Assembly (NCBI GenBank): GCA_000165345.1
Contig: CM000435.1
Location: 32,001 to 96,000 of the forward strand
DNA length: 64,000 bases
Reading direction: 5' to 3'
Within the stretch, counting starts at the first letter, position 1, and every line of letters starts with the position of its first letter. This document shows positions 8,572 to 14,695 of this stretch, piece by piece. The notes under the pieces were generated by a model. It had not been told where the DNA came from. It saw only the letters and a list, made by a program, of their open reading frames with translations, and ran no database searches. The translations under genes were made by a program, and so were the position numbers.

Positions 8572-9361
8572 TTACAAACGACGACCACGTCTACCACCTT
8601 TTCTTCTGGTGCTATCAGTTGGAATTGGAGTAACATCCTCGATACGGCCAATCTTCATTCCAGCACGAGCTAAAGCTCTAAGAGCTGATTGAGCTCCCGG
8701 ACCCATTGTCTTTGACTTGACTCCACCAACAGCTCTGAGCTTAATATGTAAAGCATGAATTCCGAATTCCTTGCATTTTTGAGCAACATCAACAGCTGCC
8801 ATCATAGCTGCATATGGAGAGTTTTCATCACGATCTGCTTTAACCTTCATTCCACCAGTAACTCTTACGATGGTTTCTCTTCCTGACAAGTCAGTTACGT
8901 GAATGAATGTATCATTGAAAGAGGCGAATATATGAGCCACAGCGAAGTTTGTTTGTCCCTCACGAACCTAAATAAATTTTAAAAAATCAGTTATTCATGT
9001 TCAAATTATACCATCAATATTATAGAGTTTCGTCCAGAATGACCTAGTTCGATGATCTAAGCAAATAATCCCTGATCATATATATATTACTTTAGTATCG
9101 CAAAAACCAGTAAAGTGACGGATTATTTTGATACTTTTGTTTAAGTACAGAGAGTGATATCTCATTTGTACAAAGACAGAAAATTTTAGGGACTTGCATT
9201 TAATTGCCTAGTCATTAAACTATAGAATTGAAAACAGAATTAAAAAAAAACTCTGACTCAATTCATAGTCATAACATCTATATACACTCCACTCCAATAT
9301 AACAACTTACCTGCTGGAATGGGACATCAGCAACTTGAGTTTCCTTCTTCTTTGGAGCCAT
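8572..9361 (-). CDS. RPS14: 40S ribosomal protein S14 (uS11). Two exons: join(8572..8967, 9311..9361) on the minus strand
   Basis: Exon 1 (51 nt) encodes [17 protein letters not shown] and ends at a GTAAGT donor (9310..9305). A 343-nt intron ends in TTATTTAG, and exon 2 resumes [48 protein letters not shown]...[10 protein letters not shown] with a TAA stop. This is near-universal uS11 sequence. The ORF-track entry begins at an internal GTG. Confidence 0.9.
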
Positions 9362-9780
9362 TTTACCGTTGATTATCTCAAATTTCAGCTATTATGAGAA
9401 AAATTAATGTTGCAATTTGCTTAATTACAACTGGTAACGAATTATCGATGTTTCCTTATTTTGCTTTTTTTTCGGAGACAGACTTATTTTAACAGGCGCC
9501 AATTTTAATATTATTAATATTAATAATTATTAGACAGGCCAAATATAACTTCTGTCCGCATTATTACATTAATTTTTATGTCAAAAGTTATAATAAATCA
9601 GCGCCAATCTTTTCCTAATATGACCTTAAAATTCACTTTTGAAGACGTATCATTTATTTATTATAGAATATATTGGGGCCTAGACGGGAAAAATGGTAAA
9701 GCAAATGTAGCTATAGTATAGAGGCATGAAAAAACTGAGAAAATTTATTACAAGTATTTAAAAAATGTTAAGAGATCTAA

Positions 9781-10794
9781 TTAGTTATTTTTGTGTGTTT
9801 TGTCATTAAATATAAATTTTGAAAGTTTGTATACCAAATTTAATCTAGAAAACACTTTATATACTATTAATGTCAATGTAATACTTAATAAGATGGATCC
9901 AATTATTTGGAAGAATAGTATTGGGAGCCCAAATTTGAAATATTCGAGTTCTAGGAACATTTAATTAGTGACCGTGATACCCCTTGACATTGGTTTTAGA
10001 ACTTACCTATATTTAGCAAGATGTTCTTAGATTGTATTTGCTTATCATAAGATACATTCTTTAACTTTGCGACCACTTTAAAAGTCACAAATTGTTGACC
10101 TTGTTGGTCATAACTTAGAAATTTTTGCTATTATTGTTAATTAGTTTTTGTATTTAAAATATAAAAACTTACTTTTTGGCTGTTAAGTAATTCATTATTT
10201 GTGAAAACTAGAGAACTTGGAAGTACTTTATCAAGTATTTTATCTAAAAAACTTTGAGATATATTATATTCTGAAGTTCATTAATTTGAAAATAATTTAT
10301 TAATTTTGTATTTTGCTATATAAACTCACTTTCTTCAGAAATTAATGGGATTATATTAAATTCTCCTTGAGGATCCTATAATATTTGTGAATTCTCTCAT
10401 TTCAAAACAAATTAACCATCTCCACTCGAGAACTTACTGGCCCAGCAGAAAAGCATTCAAATTGGTATCTTCCATCAATGAGATCTTTCTTATTCACATT
10501 TATTATTAATGGATAATCTTATATTCAAGAATGAATTGTCAAGTTACACAATAATTGATCAATATTACTTACTTATATTCATTTTAATGCCATAATATGG
10601 CTTTCCTGGCAAAATTATAATATTATTCTCCATACCAGACTTAGAAAAGAAACCCAGTAATTATCATGTTTAACAATTAATGTTTTGTCTTATTATTATC
10701 TTACCTTGTCCAATGGCCTTTCAGACTTGGAAAATAAGACCAAAAAGGTGCTAATTAAGAATAGGTAAGCAGAGAACCTGCTTATAACTTTCAT
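9781..10794 (-). CDS. Seven-exon gene for a ~223-aa small type-I membrane protein (signal peptide plus one C-terminal TM); family unassigned; absent from the ORF track
   Basis: Hand-spliced on the minus strand: join(9781..9950, 10007..10127, 10173..10270, 10330..10375, 10438..10517, 10573..10639, 10705..10794). Every donor is GTAAG(T/A) or GTGAGT and every acceptor is YAG. Introns are 45-65 nt and the phase is continuous. Protein: MKVISRFSAYLFLISTFLVLFSKSERPLDK|SGMENNIIILPGKPYYGIKMNI|NYPLIINVNKKDLIDGRYQFECFSAGP|DPQGEFNIIPLISEE|KYNISQSFLDKILDKVLPSSLVFTNNELLNSQK|QKFLSYDQQGQQFVTFKVVAKLKNVSYDKQIQSKNILLNI|ELEYFKFGLPILFFQIIGSILLSITLTLIVYKVFSRL...KNN*. Confidence 0.45.
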
Positions 10795-11046
10795 TATGAA
10801 ATCCTAATTTAACTTTGGTTACTTTTTTGTATCTATTCTTCAGGTATATATTATTCCAATTTTTTTGTGTGGCTATAATTTGTGTGTTTTCCTAACAAAT
10901 ATACCGTTATAGGGGGAAAAAAAATACCGGTATTTAATCAATTGTGTGAAACCGAAATTTTTTTTATTTAAATATATTTTTAACCCAAATCAATCGAAAA
11001 AATTAAATATATAGGAAATCCAACAGGTAAAAAAATTCACTATGAA

Positions 11047-12843
11047 ATGCGTCCATCTCTACTTTTGGGGAGTTCTGTGAGAAGAAAAAATTGCATAAAA
11101 AACTACTTGGTATCCTCAGATACTGAAATTGAAGATGAAAATAATAACATAAATACTCCTGTAAAAAATCTAACTATAAAGTTAAAAGAGGAGCACTATT
11201 ATAGTGATAATTCAAACATTAATGAATGCTCCTCAAGACCATCAATAAGCTTAGCAACATCTGTTAGAAGAAAAGTGTATCACATAGACTCCAGCGAAGA
11301 TAGCTATACAGAAGACGTAAACTTAAGCTATTTAAACAGTAATCCAAGTACTTTTACATCTGATATACTGGAAAATCTCCATGAGTCCCCAACTCAGCCT
11401 TGTATTCACTATAAAAGTGAATTTGAGCCAAATAACAATCCCTCTTCTAATTACTCAAGTATTGGAAGTAGAAGGAGAAACTGTATATTTAGTAGCGAAG
11501 AAGAAGATATTATCCCGTTATCTTCGAGGCCTTCAATTAAATATCAGTCTTCAGTTAGAAGGAAAAACAATTCAAGAAAAATTTTTACAATAATTGATTC
11601 AGATTCTGAAGATGAGTTAAGCAATAATGCAGCAAGCAAAAGATCGTCTTTTTGTCTAGGCCCAGAACTAATCTGTGAGCCAAATATTCTCAACTGTACA
11701 CCAGAACAACACAATATCTGGAGGTCATTTGACTCTGATTTAGAAATAGATGAAACAAATGTTTCTATAGATACTCTACAAGAATTGGAGTGGAAAACAG
11801 CTATTTCATCTTCAGACTTTGAAGATGAAGAAGTGGAAAGAAAACATCTGACTGGTTATCAGTCTGAGGAAATTGAATATGAAGACAAAACTGGAGAATA
11901 TCAAAATACTCCCAGAATGGATGAAAAAGAAGTATTACCAGAAAAATATAGTTTATTTAGTGATGAAGATATAGAAGATCAAAAGTCTGATTTGGAGGAG
12001 ATCAAGGAAAATGTTAGCTCAAAAGATCTGAACTCTAATCAAGTGACAAACTTGACAAAAGAAATCCCCTTGAAAAATAAATCCGAAAAATTTGGAGCAT
12101 TCATAAGACAAAGATCATCAATTGCAAAATATTGGTACCAAAAGTTTAATAAGCAAGTTTTCCATAATAGGCTTCCAGAGGAAGTTCCAATTAAATGGAC
12201 AGGAAGGCTTCAAAGAACAGCAGCTCAAACACTTTTTATTACTAATATAGATGGTTCTAAAAGAGTGGTAATTAAGCTTTCAAAGTATGTTTTGGATTGT
12301 GAATTCAGATTAAAGAAAACACTGTTACATGAATGTTGTCATGTAGCTCAATTTTTATTAGATTCTTGTATTAGGCCTCCTCATGGACAAATATTTATGA
12401 AATGGGGAAAAGTAGCTACAAAAGTGTTTCCTGACTTAAAAGTTGAAATATACCATAATTATGAAATAATATACAAATACAGATATCAATGTTTAAGATG
12501 TTTTCAGATGTTTGGAAGACAAACCAAAATAAATGATGAAACCAAGATTGTTTGTTCAGTCTGTAATGGTACAGTAATATTTATTGGAAGAGGAACTTTA
12601 AGCAATAGTAGGAAGGAATTTCAAGTAAAAGCACAGAACCCTCCAAATACACAGAAGAGTAAATCCAACCCTTACTCTGAGTTTGTAAAGGAGAAGTTTG
12701 CAGAGTTCAAGAAGGATATTAGGGATGGCAGAACCCCCTCCAGAAGAGCTCCAAGCATAATGAAAGAAATTGCAAAGCTTTGGAAACAAAAAAAGTCTGA
12801 AGATTTGATTCAAGACTTCGAAAAGCTTTCCATAAACAATTAG
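11047..12843 (+). CDS. GCNA/ACRC-like protein: acidic Ser-rich disordered N-terminus, SprT-type zinc metalloprotease domain (HExxH), zinc ribbon and C-terminal HMG-box-like tail
   Basis: 598-aa ORF with an ATG start. The N-terminal ~350 aa are low-complexity with SSVRRK repeats and D/E/S-rich stretches. The SprT-like core follows: WTGRLQRTAAQT...LLHECCHVAQFLLDS...PHGQIFMKWG. A Cys4 ribbon (CLRCFQMF...CSVCNG) comes next. The basic tail (NPYSEFVKEKFAEFKKDIRDGRTPSRRAPSIMKEIAKLWKQKK) resembles an HMG box. Confidence 0.65.
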   Translation: MRPSLLLGSSVRRKNCIKNYLVSSDTEIEDENNNINTPVKNLTIKLKEEHYYSDNSNINECSSRPSISLATSVRRKVYHIDSSEDSYTEDVNLSYLNSNPSTFTSDILENLHESPTQPCIHYKSEFEPNNNPSSNYSSIGSRRRNCIFSSEEEDIIPLSSRPSIKYQSSVRRKNNSRKIFTIIDSDSEDELSNNAASKRSSFCLGPELICEPNILNCTPEQHNIWRSFDSDLEIDETNVSIDTLQELEWKTAISSSDFEDEEVERKHLTGYQSEEIEYEDKTGEYQNTPRMDEKEVLPEKYSLFSDEDIEDQKSDLEEIKENVSSKDLNSNQVTNLTKEIPLKNKSEKFGAFIRQRSSIAKYWYQKFNKQVFHNRLPEEVPIKWTGRLQRTAAQTLFITNIDGSKRVVIKLSKYVLDCEFRLKKTLLHECCHVAQFLLDSCIRPPHGQIFMKWGKVATKVFPDLKVEIYHNYEIIYKYRYQCLRCFQMFGRQTKINDETKIVCSVCNGTVIFIGRGTLSNSRKEFQVKAQNPPNTQKSKSNPYSEFVKEKFAEFKKDIRDGRTPSRRAPSIMKEIAKLWKQKKSEDLIQDFEKLSINN

Positions 12844-12865: not shown

Positions 12866-13528
12866 CTATTTATCAGCTTGTTTCATACTAGTTTTACATT
12901 GTTCTCTTATTCTATTGATTTTTACTAACCTATATTTATAAATCAATGAGTTTATTACGAATAAACAAATTAGTATCAAATCAATTATTAACGAGTATTT
13001 TACATATTTATAAAATGTATATTTGTATCTTATAATATTTCCGATGCTATTCATATGATAAGCTCCAATATAAGCTGAGTTAATCATATTTTTGTTATTG
13101 TTGATAGGTATCGAATTTTCAAAGAATTTTCTTGAATCGTATTTCAATTCAGTTATTACAAAATCTGCCAAGCTTTGTATCATACTTGTACATACATCCA
13201 TTTTAATCCAGTAATCTTCTTTTTGGAGCTTTTTACCAAACAATGTCCCGAAGCTTTGTATTCTACAATTTATTCCAATAGAATTAGGAAGTTCTTGTAA
13301 TGCATTACTACTTAAATAGTTCGGTCCATACCTCAGCTCCCCTAACATGCTACATCCATCCATACACTCAGTATTATGCTGAGTCCAGTAATTTAATCTG
13401 CAATTCTCCAATGAAATATCATTTTTCTCAGAAATTGAATTTGGTACTATATCAAAGTTAAGCAACCATCCATATATTATTTCAAATAATAAAATATATA
13501 TTAGAAGGCAATATTTAACCTTTTTCAT
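12866..13528 (-). CDS. Hypothetical secreted or type-I membrane protein (signal peptide, Cys-containing ectodomain, C-terminal hydrophobic segment)
   Basis: 220-aa ORF with ATG at 13528..13526. N-terminal hydrophobic signal (MKKVKYCLLIYILLFEIIYG) and a C-terminal hydrophobic stretch (YSLIIDLILICLFVINSLIY). I recognise no family. Confidence 0.4.
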   Translation of the reverse strand: MKKVKYCLLIYILLFEIIYGWLLNFDIVPNSISEKNDISLENCRLNYWTQHNTECMDGCSMLGELRYGPNYLSSNALQELPNSIGINCRIQSFGTLFGKKLQKEDYWIKMDVCTSMIQSLADFVITELKYDSRKFFENSIPINNNKNMINSAYIGAYHMNSIGNIIRYKYTFYKYVKYSLIIDLILICLFVINSLIYKYRLVKINRIREQCKTSMKQADK

Positions 13529-13715: not shown

Positions 13716-14695
13716 TCAGAACTCAACAGGAATAGTTTTATATACACACGAGTATGCTGGAGAATTTGACCTTTCTACTTTCTTTGCTTCTTCCGTGCTT
13801 GTTTTGATTGCAGTTACACAAGGATCTGAACTTAATTCATCATCTGGAATTCTCTCAAACAACGTCTTATAGGTATCCATCACCTTAACTGCCCAAACAT
13901 AATAGTCATATACATCGGTTACTATATAAATCAATCCTCCCTCTTGTAATAAGTACCAATACAAAGGAACAGTTGAGTAACTAATACAGTGAAAAAAAGG
14001 AATTAAGAGTTAAGTTAAAATATATATATGTATATATTTAATATTAAAACTGCAAAAAGGTCCAAACTTACCTCACAATTCTTCTTCTCCAGTTTCTTTT
14101 TTTGAAATGTGGATCTGGGAAACAAATAAAAATCATTTCTAACTGATGTTTTGTAATGTAATTTGGTAAATATTTCATTGCATTCGTTTTAACTACACTG
14201 ATATTCTTTCCAGTACCATTTTGTTGCATTGAAAGTATTCTTTCCCCTACGTAATTAGTTACTTTCTCTCTAATCTCTAACCCTAATGCAAGCTTGTCTT
14301 TAAAATGCTCGCTCAACCAAACTAGTAATCCTCCATATCCACATCCAATATCTAATATCTTTAAATGTTTCGAAATTGCTACACTTTTTTCACTTAAAAT
14401 TTTGTTTTCACTGTATTTTATGGGGTACTTCTTAGTATTTAGATGAAGCTCCTTTTTAAATCCTTCCTGATCAGAATAATAATTTGGATAATGTAATTCC
14501 CAGTCAATGTAATCTGGACTTAATGGGTGTATCATAAAATTGTCAGCCAATGGATTACAGTGCTACAAATGTAATTATTTGGTTCATTTTTGATCATTTT
14601 AATTAGTCTTTAATATAAAATAAACTTACTGCTCGTTGTCTATAATACTTTTTTTGAGGATGTTTAACTACTTGATCATGTTCGTGGTCTTGCAT
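13716..14695 (-). CDS. TRM8: tRNA (guanine-N7)-methyltransferase (Trm8/METTL1). Three exons: join(13716..13980, 14072..14562, 14630..14695) on the minus strand
   Basis: Exon 1 encodes MQDHEHDQVVKHPQKKYYRQRA, which matches the conserved KKRYYRQRAH start. Its GTAAGT donor is at 14629..14624 and the 67-nt intron ends in TTTGTAG. Exon 2 encodes HCNPLADNFMIHPL...ILDIGCGYGGLLVWLS...FICFPDPHFKKRNWRRRIV, covering the SAM-binding motif and the PDPHFK motif. A second GTAAGT donor at 14071..14066 opens a 91-nt intron ending in TATTAG. Exon 3 encodes SYSTVPLYWYLLQEGGLIYIVTDV...FERIP...STEEAKKVERSN. The ORF track splits this gene into two pieces and gives the larger one a TTG start. Confidence 0.85.

Follow-up and report, generated by a model that had tools for sequence, protein, structure and literature searches.

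SprT-type DNA-protein-crosslink (DPC) proteases fall into three branches in eukaryotes, and GCNA/ACRC is one of them. Carmell et al. (2016; PMC5098910) defined the family by its domain order, in which an intrinsically disordered region is followed by a SprT protease, a C2C2 zinc finger and a two-helix HMG-like box. Human ACRC depends on four N-terminal SUMO-interacting motifs (SIMs) both to bind polySUMO and to reach DPC foci, and a C. elegans GCNA-1 mutant of the catalytic Glu (E364Q) is sensitive to formaldehyde (PMC6463212). Zebrafish Acrc has been reported as an essential DPC-repair protease (PMC13092972). Here, we describe an open reading frame (ORF) on the forward strand of a Cryptosporidium parvum DNA stretch (contig CM000435.1 of assembly GCA_000165345.1, positions 32,001 to 96,000; hereinafter the window, i.e. 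the whole 64,000 nucleotides analyzed), which most likely encodes the C. parvum ortholog of GCNA/ACRC.

In the source table of the 2016 study, the C. muris protein B6AHQ8_CRYMR, which had passed the authors' protease hidden Markov model (HMM) at E<1e-5, was labeled 'protease only' together with a Gregarina protein, and a Perkinsus protein was labeled 'protease/zinc only' (PMC5098910). B6AHQ8 (UniRef100_B6AHQ8, P0012) is the C. muris ortholog of the window protein. A preliminary description of the gene, made from the sequence alone, had presented GCNA as a family known mainly from metazoan germlines; this part of it did not hold, since GCNA has been reported in every eukaryotic supergroup and C. 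muris is itself listed (PMC5098910).

Gene identity and domain architecture

The 598-aa product was identical to EAK90513.1 (Q5CZ21_CRYPI) of C. parvum Iowa II, whose existing annotation is 'SprT family metallopeptidase'. Another twelve Cryptosporidium species and genotypes yielded full-length orthologs, among them C. hominis, C. meleagridis, C. ubiquitum, C. canis, C. felis, C. xiaoi, C. ryanae, C. serpentis, C. muris and others, with identities from 97% (C. hominis) down to 37%, and the C-terminal half was the best-conserved portion of the protein within the genus. The C. muris protein (CMU_006760, B6AHQ8_CRYMR) is a direct ortholog with the same architecture; its identity to the window protein is 37% over the full length and 58% within the C-terminal 250 aa. 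The gene is real, intact and conserved, and it was annotated before this analysis. Its GCNA affiliation is likewise already in the public record, because B6AHQ8 appears in the 2016 table and one C. hominis record (the 97%-identical ortholog) is titled 'HMG box-containing protein C19G7.04', SPBC19G7.04 being the GCNA of S. pombe. The sole refinement over the public record is that all four GCNA domains are retained. The G+C content was ~29% around the gene and ~27-42% over the whole window. Two small ORFs overlapping the gene, at 11381-11593 (+) and 12598-12813 (-), fall within its conserved coding sequence (CDS) and were regarded as chance occurrences.

The main features of the gene were assigned as follows:

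11047..12843, + strand: complete single-exon CDS of a GCNA-type SprT metalloprotease (ATG-to-stop ORF, 598 aa plus stop)
11047..12069, + strand: acidic Ser/Asn-rich N-terminal region, probably disordered, aa 1-341 (composition, low model confidence)
12070..12456, + strand: SprT-type zinc metalloprotease domain, aa 342-470
12328..12342, + strand: catalytic HECCH, with H428, E429 and H432 (read from the sequence; invariant in alignments of relatives)
12382..12384, + strand: H446 in PPHG, predicted third zinc ligand (P-H-G invariant in 31 relatives)
12484..12570, + strand: GCNA-type C2C2 zinc finger/ribbon, aa 480-508, with the signature GRQTKIND (published GCNA zinc-finger HMM)
12661..12798, + strand: two-helix GCNA-type HMG-like box, aa 539-584 (published GCNA HMG HMM, hhalign, AlphaFold2)

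The protease domain was recognized by Pfam as SprT-like (aa 362-470, E=6e-18). Its catalytic motif reads LLHECCH, where the relatives have HEMCH in place of the HECCH of C. parvum, and the zinc ligands and the catalytic Glu were invariant in a 31-sequence alignment spanning diatoms, a chromerid, a chlorarachniophyte and fungi. H446 was aligned with the histidine of the SPRTN motif EGHG. As predicted from these residues, the zinc active site, consisting of H428, E429 and H432 plus H446, is intact. A pseudo-protease was considered and rejected, since the zinc ligands and E429 are intact and invariant.

For the two C-terminal modules, the zinc-finger HMM (30 positions) and the HMG HMM (49 positions) of Carmell et al. 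were rebuilt from the text of the 2016 supplement. Controls consisted of 5000 shuffles of the C-terminal half, 511 ORF segments from the window and 120 SPRTN-family proteins collected with a human SPRTN fragment as the query. Among the 511 ORF segments, the GCNA ORF alone matched the two models. The zinc-finger HMM aligned end to end over aa 480-508 with 23.4 bits (E=3.3e-9, single target), the match being YQC-LRCFQMFGRQTKINDETKIVCSVCNG against the consensus YkCtlgCdkeyGRhSKSiDverlvCgrCrG; the maximum was 7.2 bits in the shuffles and 9.9 bits in the SPRTN proteins. The four cysteines (C482, C485, C503 and C506) were invariant in the 31-sequence alignment, and the signature G-R-x-[ST]-K-x-x-D is common to the GCNA family and the C. 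parvum protein. On these grounds, the protein carries a GCNA-signature C2C2 zinc finger directly after the protease. A further 91 aa follow C506 and are mostly occupied by the HMG-like helices.

Upstream of the protease, aa 1-345 had an isoelectric point (pI) of 4.65 and a net charge of -27, and were rich in Ser (15%), Glu (12%), Asn (10%) and Asp (7%). Disorder was judged by proxy, from this composition and from the per-residue confidence (predicted local distance difference test, pLDDT) of AlphaFold2 models. In the full-length model, aa 1-341 showed a pLDDT below 50 and no secondary structure, and the structured part began at aa 342; these data suggest that aa 1-341 are probably intrinsically disordered.

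The preliminary description had proposed the GCNA domain order in an apicomplexan-like genome. The guess about the host was confirmed by the exact protein match to C. parvum. The HECCH SprT core, the Cys4 ribbon and the acidic, Ser-rich disordered region were all recovered as proposed, and with the tail considered below all four elements were found, the protease domain grouping with the GCNA type. The same four-part order and the same protease clade are seen in GCNA/ACRC proteins such as human ACRC, C. elegans GCNA-1 and S. pombe SPBC19G7.04.

Family placement and the HMG-like tail

A search with the full-length protein was dominated by low-complexity words and returned the genus alone; this was remedied by using the C-terminal 252 aa as the query. 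When 1.84 billion representatives were searched with the profile of these 252 aa, 2725 proteins were detected at E<=1e-3. The best 141 of the 2725 had a median length of 528 aa and matched at their C-terminus, behind an N-terminal region of 278 aa (median). That region resembled its C. parvum counterpart in composition: Asp plus Glu, Lys plus Arg and Ser accounted for 19%, 11% and 15% here, versus medians of 20%, 10% and 13% in the 141 relatives. The GCNA zinc finger was detected at >=20 bits in 133 of the 141 and the HMG box at >=15 bits in 74; 38 relatives scored >=37 bits on both models and therefore fall under the published three-domain definition. Named relatives included diatoms, Vitrella, Bigelowiella, a chytrid and ascomycetes. 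Several close non-Cryptosporidium relatives (P0013, P0021, P0029, P0030 and similar ENA/Logan proteins) stop right after the protease and have neither ribbon nor tail; their shortness is more likely due to incomplete gene models or to contig ends than to loss of the domains.

The C-terminal tail of SPRTN carries SHP, PIP and UBZ motifs, and this protease is guided by ubiquitin and PCNA. That the window protein is a parasite ortholog of SPRTN (Spartan/DVC-1), i.e. a replication-coupled DPC protease guided in this way, is highly improbable. SPRTN is simply the nearest solved relative: we know of no GCNA structure, and structure matches to SPRTN hence show the SprT fold only. The protease domain scored 137 bits on a GCNA-type HMM, built from non-Cryptosporidium domains, versus 35 bits on the SPRTN HMM. 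In a neighbor-joining (NJ) distance tree of 13 SPRTN, 28 GCNA-type and 5 Cryptosporidium protease domains (136 columns), SPRTN was separated from GCNA plus Cryptosporidium in 100 of 100 bootstraps, and the Cryptosporidium sequences were monophyletic inside the GCNA-type side. The phylogenetic placement called for in the preliminary description therefore fell on the GCNA-type side with respect to SPRTN, in a tree containing no Wss1 sequences. The architecture also differs: in SPRTN the protease is N-terminal and is accompanied in many members by the zinc-binding subdomain PF22934, whereas in C. parvum it is C-terminal, behind the disordered region, and Pfam found no PF22934 in the window protein. 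Further, SPRTN proteins did not match the GCNA models, the 120 control proteins reaching at most 9.9 and 3.0 bits (zinc finger and HMG) against 23.4 and 15.9 bits here. A SUMO-guided protease of the Wss1/WLM type can be given next to no probability, as Wss1, known from fungi and plants, belongs to a different Pfam family (WLM) and has no C2C2 finger plus HMG-like tail; the window protein gave no match to WLM (PF08325) even at E<=10. The chytrid Globomyces pollinis-pini was observed to encode both a GCNA-type and a SPRTN-type protein (P0037 and P0268), as expected of ancient paralogs.

The tail, consisting of the last 63 aa (aa 536-598), is basic (pI 9.8), and in an AlphaFold2 model of aa 340-598 (mean pLDDT 88.4) the tail consisted of exactly two confident helices (aa 542-559 and 568-593), with no room for a third HMG helix. 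The published GCNA HMG HMM matched aa 539-584 with 15.9 bits (E=4.4e-7, single target; NPYSEFVKEKF...IMKEIAKLWK against naFakFvKeNf...VMkkLskdfk), the maximum being 11.4 bits in the shuffles and 3.0 bits in the SPRTN proteins. In an hhalign comparison, the Cryptosporidium tails aligned with those of 28 relatives at a probability of 98.4% (E=6.5e-15, 53 columns). When the profile of the relatives' tails was searched against the PDB, HMG-box proteins alone were returned, including TFAM (1.5e-7), HMGB1 (2.6e-7), NHP6A, HMG-D and others, and the matches lay within the helix 1-2 portion of the box. Pfam HMG_box was likewise detected in 22 of the 28 tails, at profile positions ~2-42 (helices 1-2), and the YABBY C-terminal domain was matched by 10 of the 28, which agrees with the link proposed by Carmell et al. 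(2016; PMC5098910). Compared with the canonical HMG boxes of TFAM, HMGB1 and NHP6A and with YABBY, the tails of the relatives thus correspond to helices 1-2 and to the C-terminal domain, respectively; helix 3 of the canonical boxes is missing, and the Cryptosporidium tail is too divergent for a Pfam match or a direct PDB match.

It is conceivable that the protein is instead a generic SprT-like protease with a tail that merely resembles HMG, that is, a GCNA-clade member effectively without an HMG box. This is quite unlikely in our assessment, although it agrees with the 'protease only' label of C. muris, with the absence of a fold match to HMG boxes, with an inter-helix loop that is longer in C. 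parvum than in the GCNA relatives, and with the Pfam and PDB results on the tail given below. The lack of an HMG box among the fold-search results is explained by the protease, which dominates the model. Set against this alternative are the hhalign result with the relatives' tails and the score on the GCNA HMG HMM, which exceeded all 5000 shuffles and all 120 SPRTN proteins. In addition, a tail HMM built from Cryptosporidium alone matched 78 of 217 relatives in their tails, at the corresponding position, and key residues are common to both groups (Y/F-x2-F-V-K-E and V/I-M-K-E-x-A-x-L-W). Another alternative is a non-catalytic scaffold that acts via its disordered region, with the protease dispensable: mouse GCNA is without protease, zinc finger and HMG box, yet it is needed for male fertility, and the motifs of the disordered region are conserved within the genus Cryptosporidium. 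This is very unlikely, given that the active site, both in its zinc ligands and in its catalytic Glu, is intact and shows no variation, that the C-terminal half is the best-conserved part across the genus, and that catalytic mutants are defective in the worm (PMC6463212).

Several results weigh against the assignment of the window protein to GCNA with a complete set of domains. Pfam HMG_box (PF00505/PF09011) gave no match at E<=10 with the full protein or at E<=0.1 with the C-terminal half, a tail profile made from Cryptosporidium alone found nothing significant in the PDB (best 2cto, E=0.13), and Pfam Zn_ribbon_SprT remained below its cutoff (16 bits vs 28.1). The zinc-finger and HMG scores would miss the UniProt-wide threshold of 1e-5 used by the authors. 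The tree included no named metazoan GCNA and no Wss1, and its GCNA-type set was defined via the authors' HMMs. The enrichment of the SIM-like elements described below over shuffled sequences was only modest (6 vs 1.9, P ~0.02). Literature searches (Cryptosporidium plus SprT; apicomplexan GCNA, Wss1 or SPRTN; gene accession numbers) yielded nothing relevant and no expression data. The term 'SprT' was also absent from the supplements to the published sexual-stage transcriptome of C. parvum, a single-sequence PDB search returned no match, and NCBIfam added nothing beyond Pfam (SprT-like plus sub-threshold ribbons).

The Pfam run suggested in the preliminary description for separating the families was informative in part: it returned SprT-like and no WLM, and it can neither confirm nor exclude GCNA. 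Taken literally, its outcome is a generic SprT assignment with no HMG-like tail, which the same description had named as a refutation; the GCNA interpretation stands only because the tail was recovered by the more sensitive tests. Similarly, the proposed HMG-like basic tail was supported by the GCNA HMG HMM, by hhalign and by the two helices, and found no match in Pfam HMG_box. Because plain Pfam was silent, family-specific and profile-profile tests were needed to reveal its HMG-like character. In absolute terms the match is weak, its main support coming from transitive homology. We read the tail as a divergent GCNA-type two-helix HMG-like box rather than a canonical HMG box. In 2015, UniProt comprised tens of millions of sequences. 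The scores of the C. muris ortholog were lower than those of C. parvum, at 20.4 bits on the zinc-finger HMM and 12.4 bits on the HMG HMM, and its 'protease only' label can be accounted for by scores below the database-wide threshold; both its zinc finger and its HMG-like box were found here to be present.

Basic repeats, SIM-like elements and the C-terminal motif

Within the disordered region and at the extreme C-terminus, the following additional elements were noted:

11050..11088, + strand: basic motif copy 1, RPSLLLGSSVRRK, aa 2-14 (regular-expression match, DNA repeat family D2, genus conservation)
11104..11139, + strand: SIM-like element 1, YLVSSDTEIEDE, aa 20-31 (acidic/Ser run after a hydrophobic core; position shared in most orthologs)
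11236..11274, + strand: basic motif copy 2, RPSISLATSVRRK, aa 64-76 (evidence as for copy 1)
11275..11316, + strand: SIM-like element 2, VYHIDSSEDSYTED (VYHIDSSEDS), aa 77-90 (pattern scan)
11482..11520, + strand: SIM-like element 3, CIFSSEEEDIIPL (SSEEEDIIPL), aa 146-158 (acidic run precedes the hydrophobic core; pattern scan)
11527..11565, + strand: basic motif copy 3, RPSIKYQSSVRRK, aa 161-173 (evidence as for copy 1)
11581..11616, + strand: SIM-like element 4, IFTIIDSDSEDE, aa 179-190, the best SIM candidate (pattern scan, diatom alignment)
11947..11979, + strand: SIM-like element 5, YSLFSDEDIED, aa 301-311 (pattern scan; position kept in most orthologs)
12805..12834, + strand: C-terminal motif LIQDFEKLSI, aa 587-596, with the pattern Phi-x3-Phi-x2-Phi-x-Phi (pattern scan)

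The SSVRRK-type repeats noticed in the preliminary description correspond to three dispersed copies of R-P-S-[IL]-x5-S-V-R-R-K, starting at aa 2, 64 and 161. The copies differ in synonymous codons and are mostly conserved across Cryptosporidium. The triple motif is genus-specific, being absent in the non-Cryptosporidium relatives, and in this respect Cryptosporidium is unlike other GCNA proteins. Each SVRRK copy was followed by a SIM-like element with a hydrophobic stretch and acidic/Ser residues.

In total, five SIM-like elements were distinguished (six overlapping pattern matches observed), compared with a shuffle mean of 1.9 (P ~0.02). Each has a hydrophobic core beside a run of Ser, Asp or Glu, and most of them keep their position within the genus. 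Element 2 was found in 10 of 12 scanned orthologs, the exceptions being C. muris (P0012) and C. serpentis (P0011), and element 4 was aligned with VVILSSDEE-type elements of diatom relatives. By analogy with the SIMs of human ACRC, these elements may bind SUMO.

The motif LIQDFEKLSI comprises the last ten structured residues and has a nuclear-export-like pattern. All 12 Cryptosporidium orthologs have the pattern Phi-x3-Phi-x2-Phi-x-Phi, as do 23 of the 58 distant relatives with enough sequence after helix 2, whereas shuffles gave 0.9 on average and never more than 4; the distant carriers were diatom, fungal and metagenomic proteins. Carmell et al. (2016; PMC5098910) do not mention the motif. 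Since C. elegans GCNA-1 is kept out of interphase nuclei, an export or docking role of the motif is conceivable. One could speculate that it represents a fifth GCNA module, which would serve in export or docking and keep GCNA off interphase chromatin, and which in Cryptosporidium would be combined with the triple RPSI-x5-SVRRK plus phospho-SIM cassette. On this reading, and if the parasite also has no SPRTN, the GCNA protein would be its main SprT-type crosslink protease. We consider this unlikely as it stands.

Genomic neighborhood and proposed role

An ORF of 220 aa (12866-13528, - strand) faces the GCNA gene tail to tail, the two stop codons being only 22 nt apart. It matched no Pfam family, and its hydrophobic N-terminal and C-terminal segments suggest a secreted or membrane protein. 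Further downstream, a TrmB-like Methyltransf_4 gene is present on the - strand at 13716-14550 in two ORFs, of which 14068-14550 covers profile positions 4-95 and 13716-13964 covers positions 103-172; the split of the profile implies an intron of ~100 nt. The C. parvum genome is compact and has few introns. Upstream, the region 8941-11046, extending over more than 2 kb before the GCNA gene, contained no ORF of >=60 aa on either strand and no Rfam family at gathering score. It is AT-rich with tiny tandem repeats only, and its ORF-free length is large for such a compact genome.

Work on human ACRC, C. elegans GCNA-1 and zebrafish Acrc is the basis on which SUMO-guided proteolysis of crosslinks is proposed for the C. 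parvum protein. The SIM-like elements of the disordered region would bind SUMO chains on proteins trapped on DNA. The C-terminal half, which is strongly basic (net charge +24), may hold the enzyme on DNA via the zinc finger and the HMG-like helices, after which cleavage of the trapped protein, e.g. a topoisomerase, by the SprT domain would allow downstream repair to finish. Such cleavage could take place mainly in meiosis and sporogony, as suggested in the preliminary description, or in merogony as well.

Beyond annotation, the assignment is of little consequence in itself, as the gene is public and the family has been known as pan-eukaryotic since 2016. It allows the 'protease only' label for Cryptosporidium to be upgraded to the full four-domain GCNA architecture, and it draws attention to a conserved C-terminal motif in the GCNA family. 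Moreover, it provides a concrete apicomplexan candidate for a protease that would clear trapped topoisomerases and other proteins from DNA in a SUMO-dependent manner. Such a candidate may be relevant to schizogony, to meiosis in the oocyst and to sensitivity to topoisomerase poisons.

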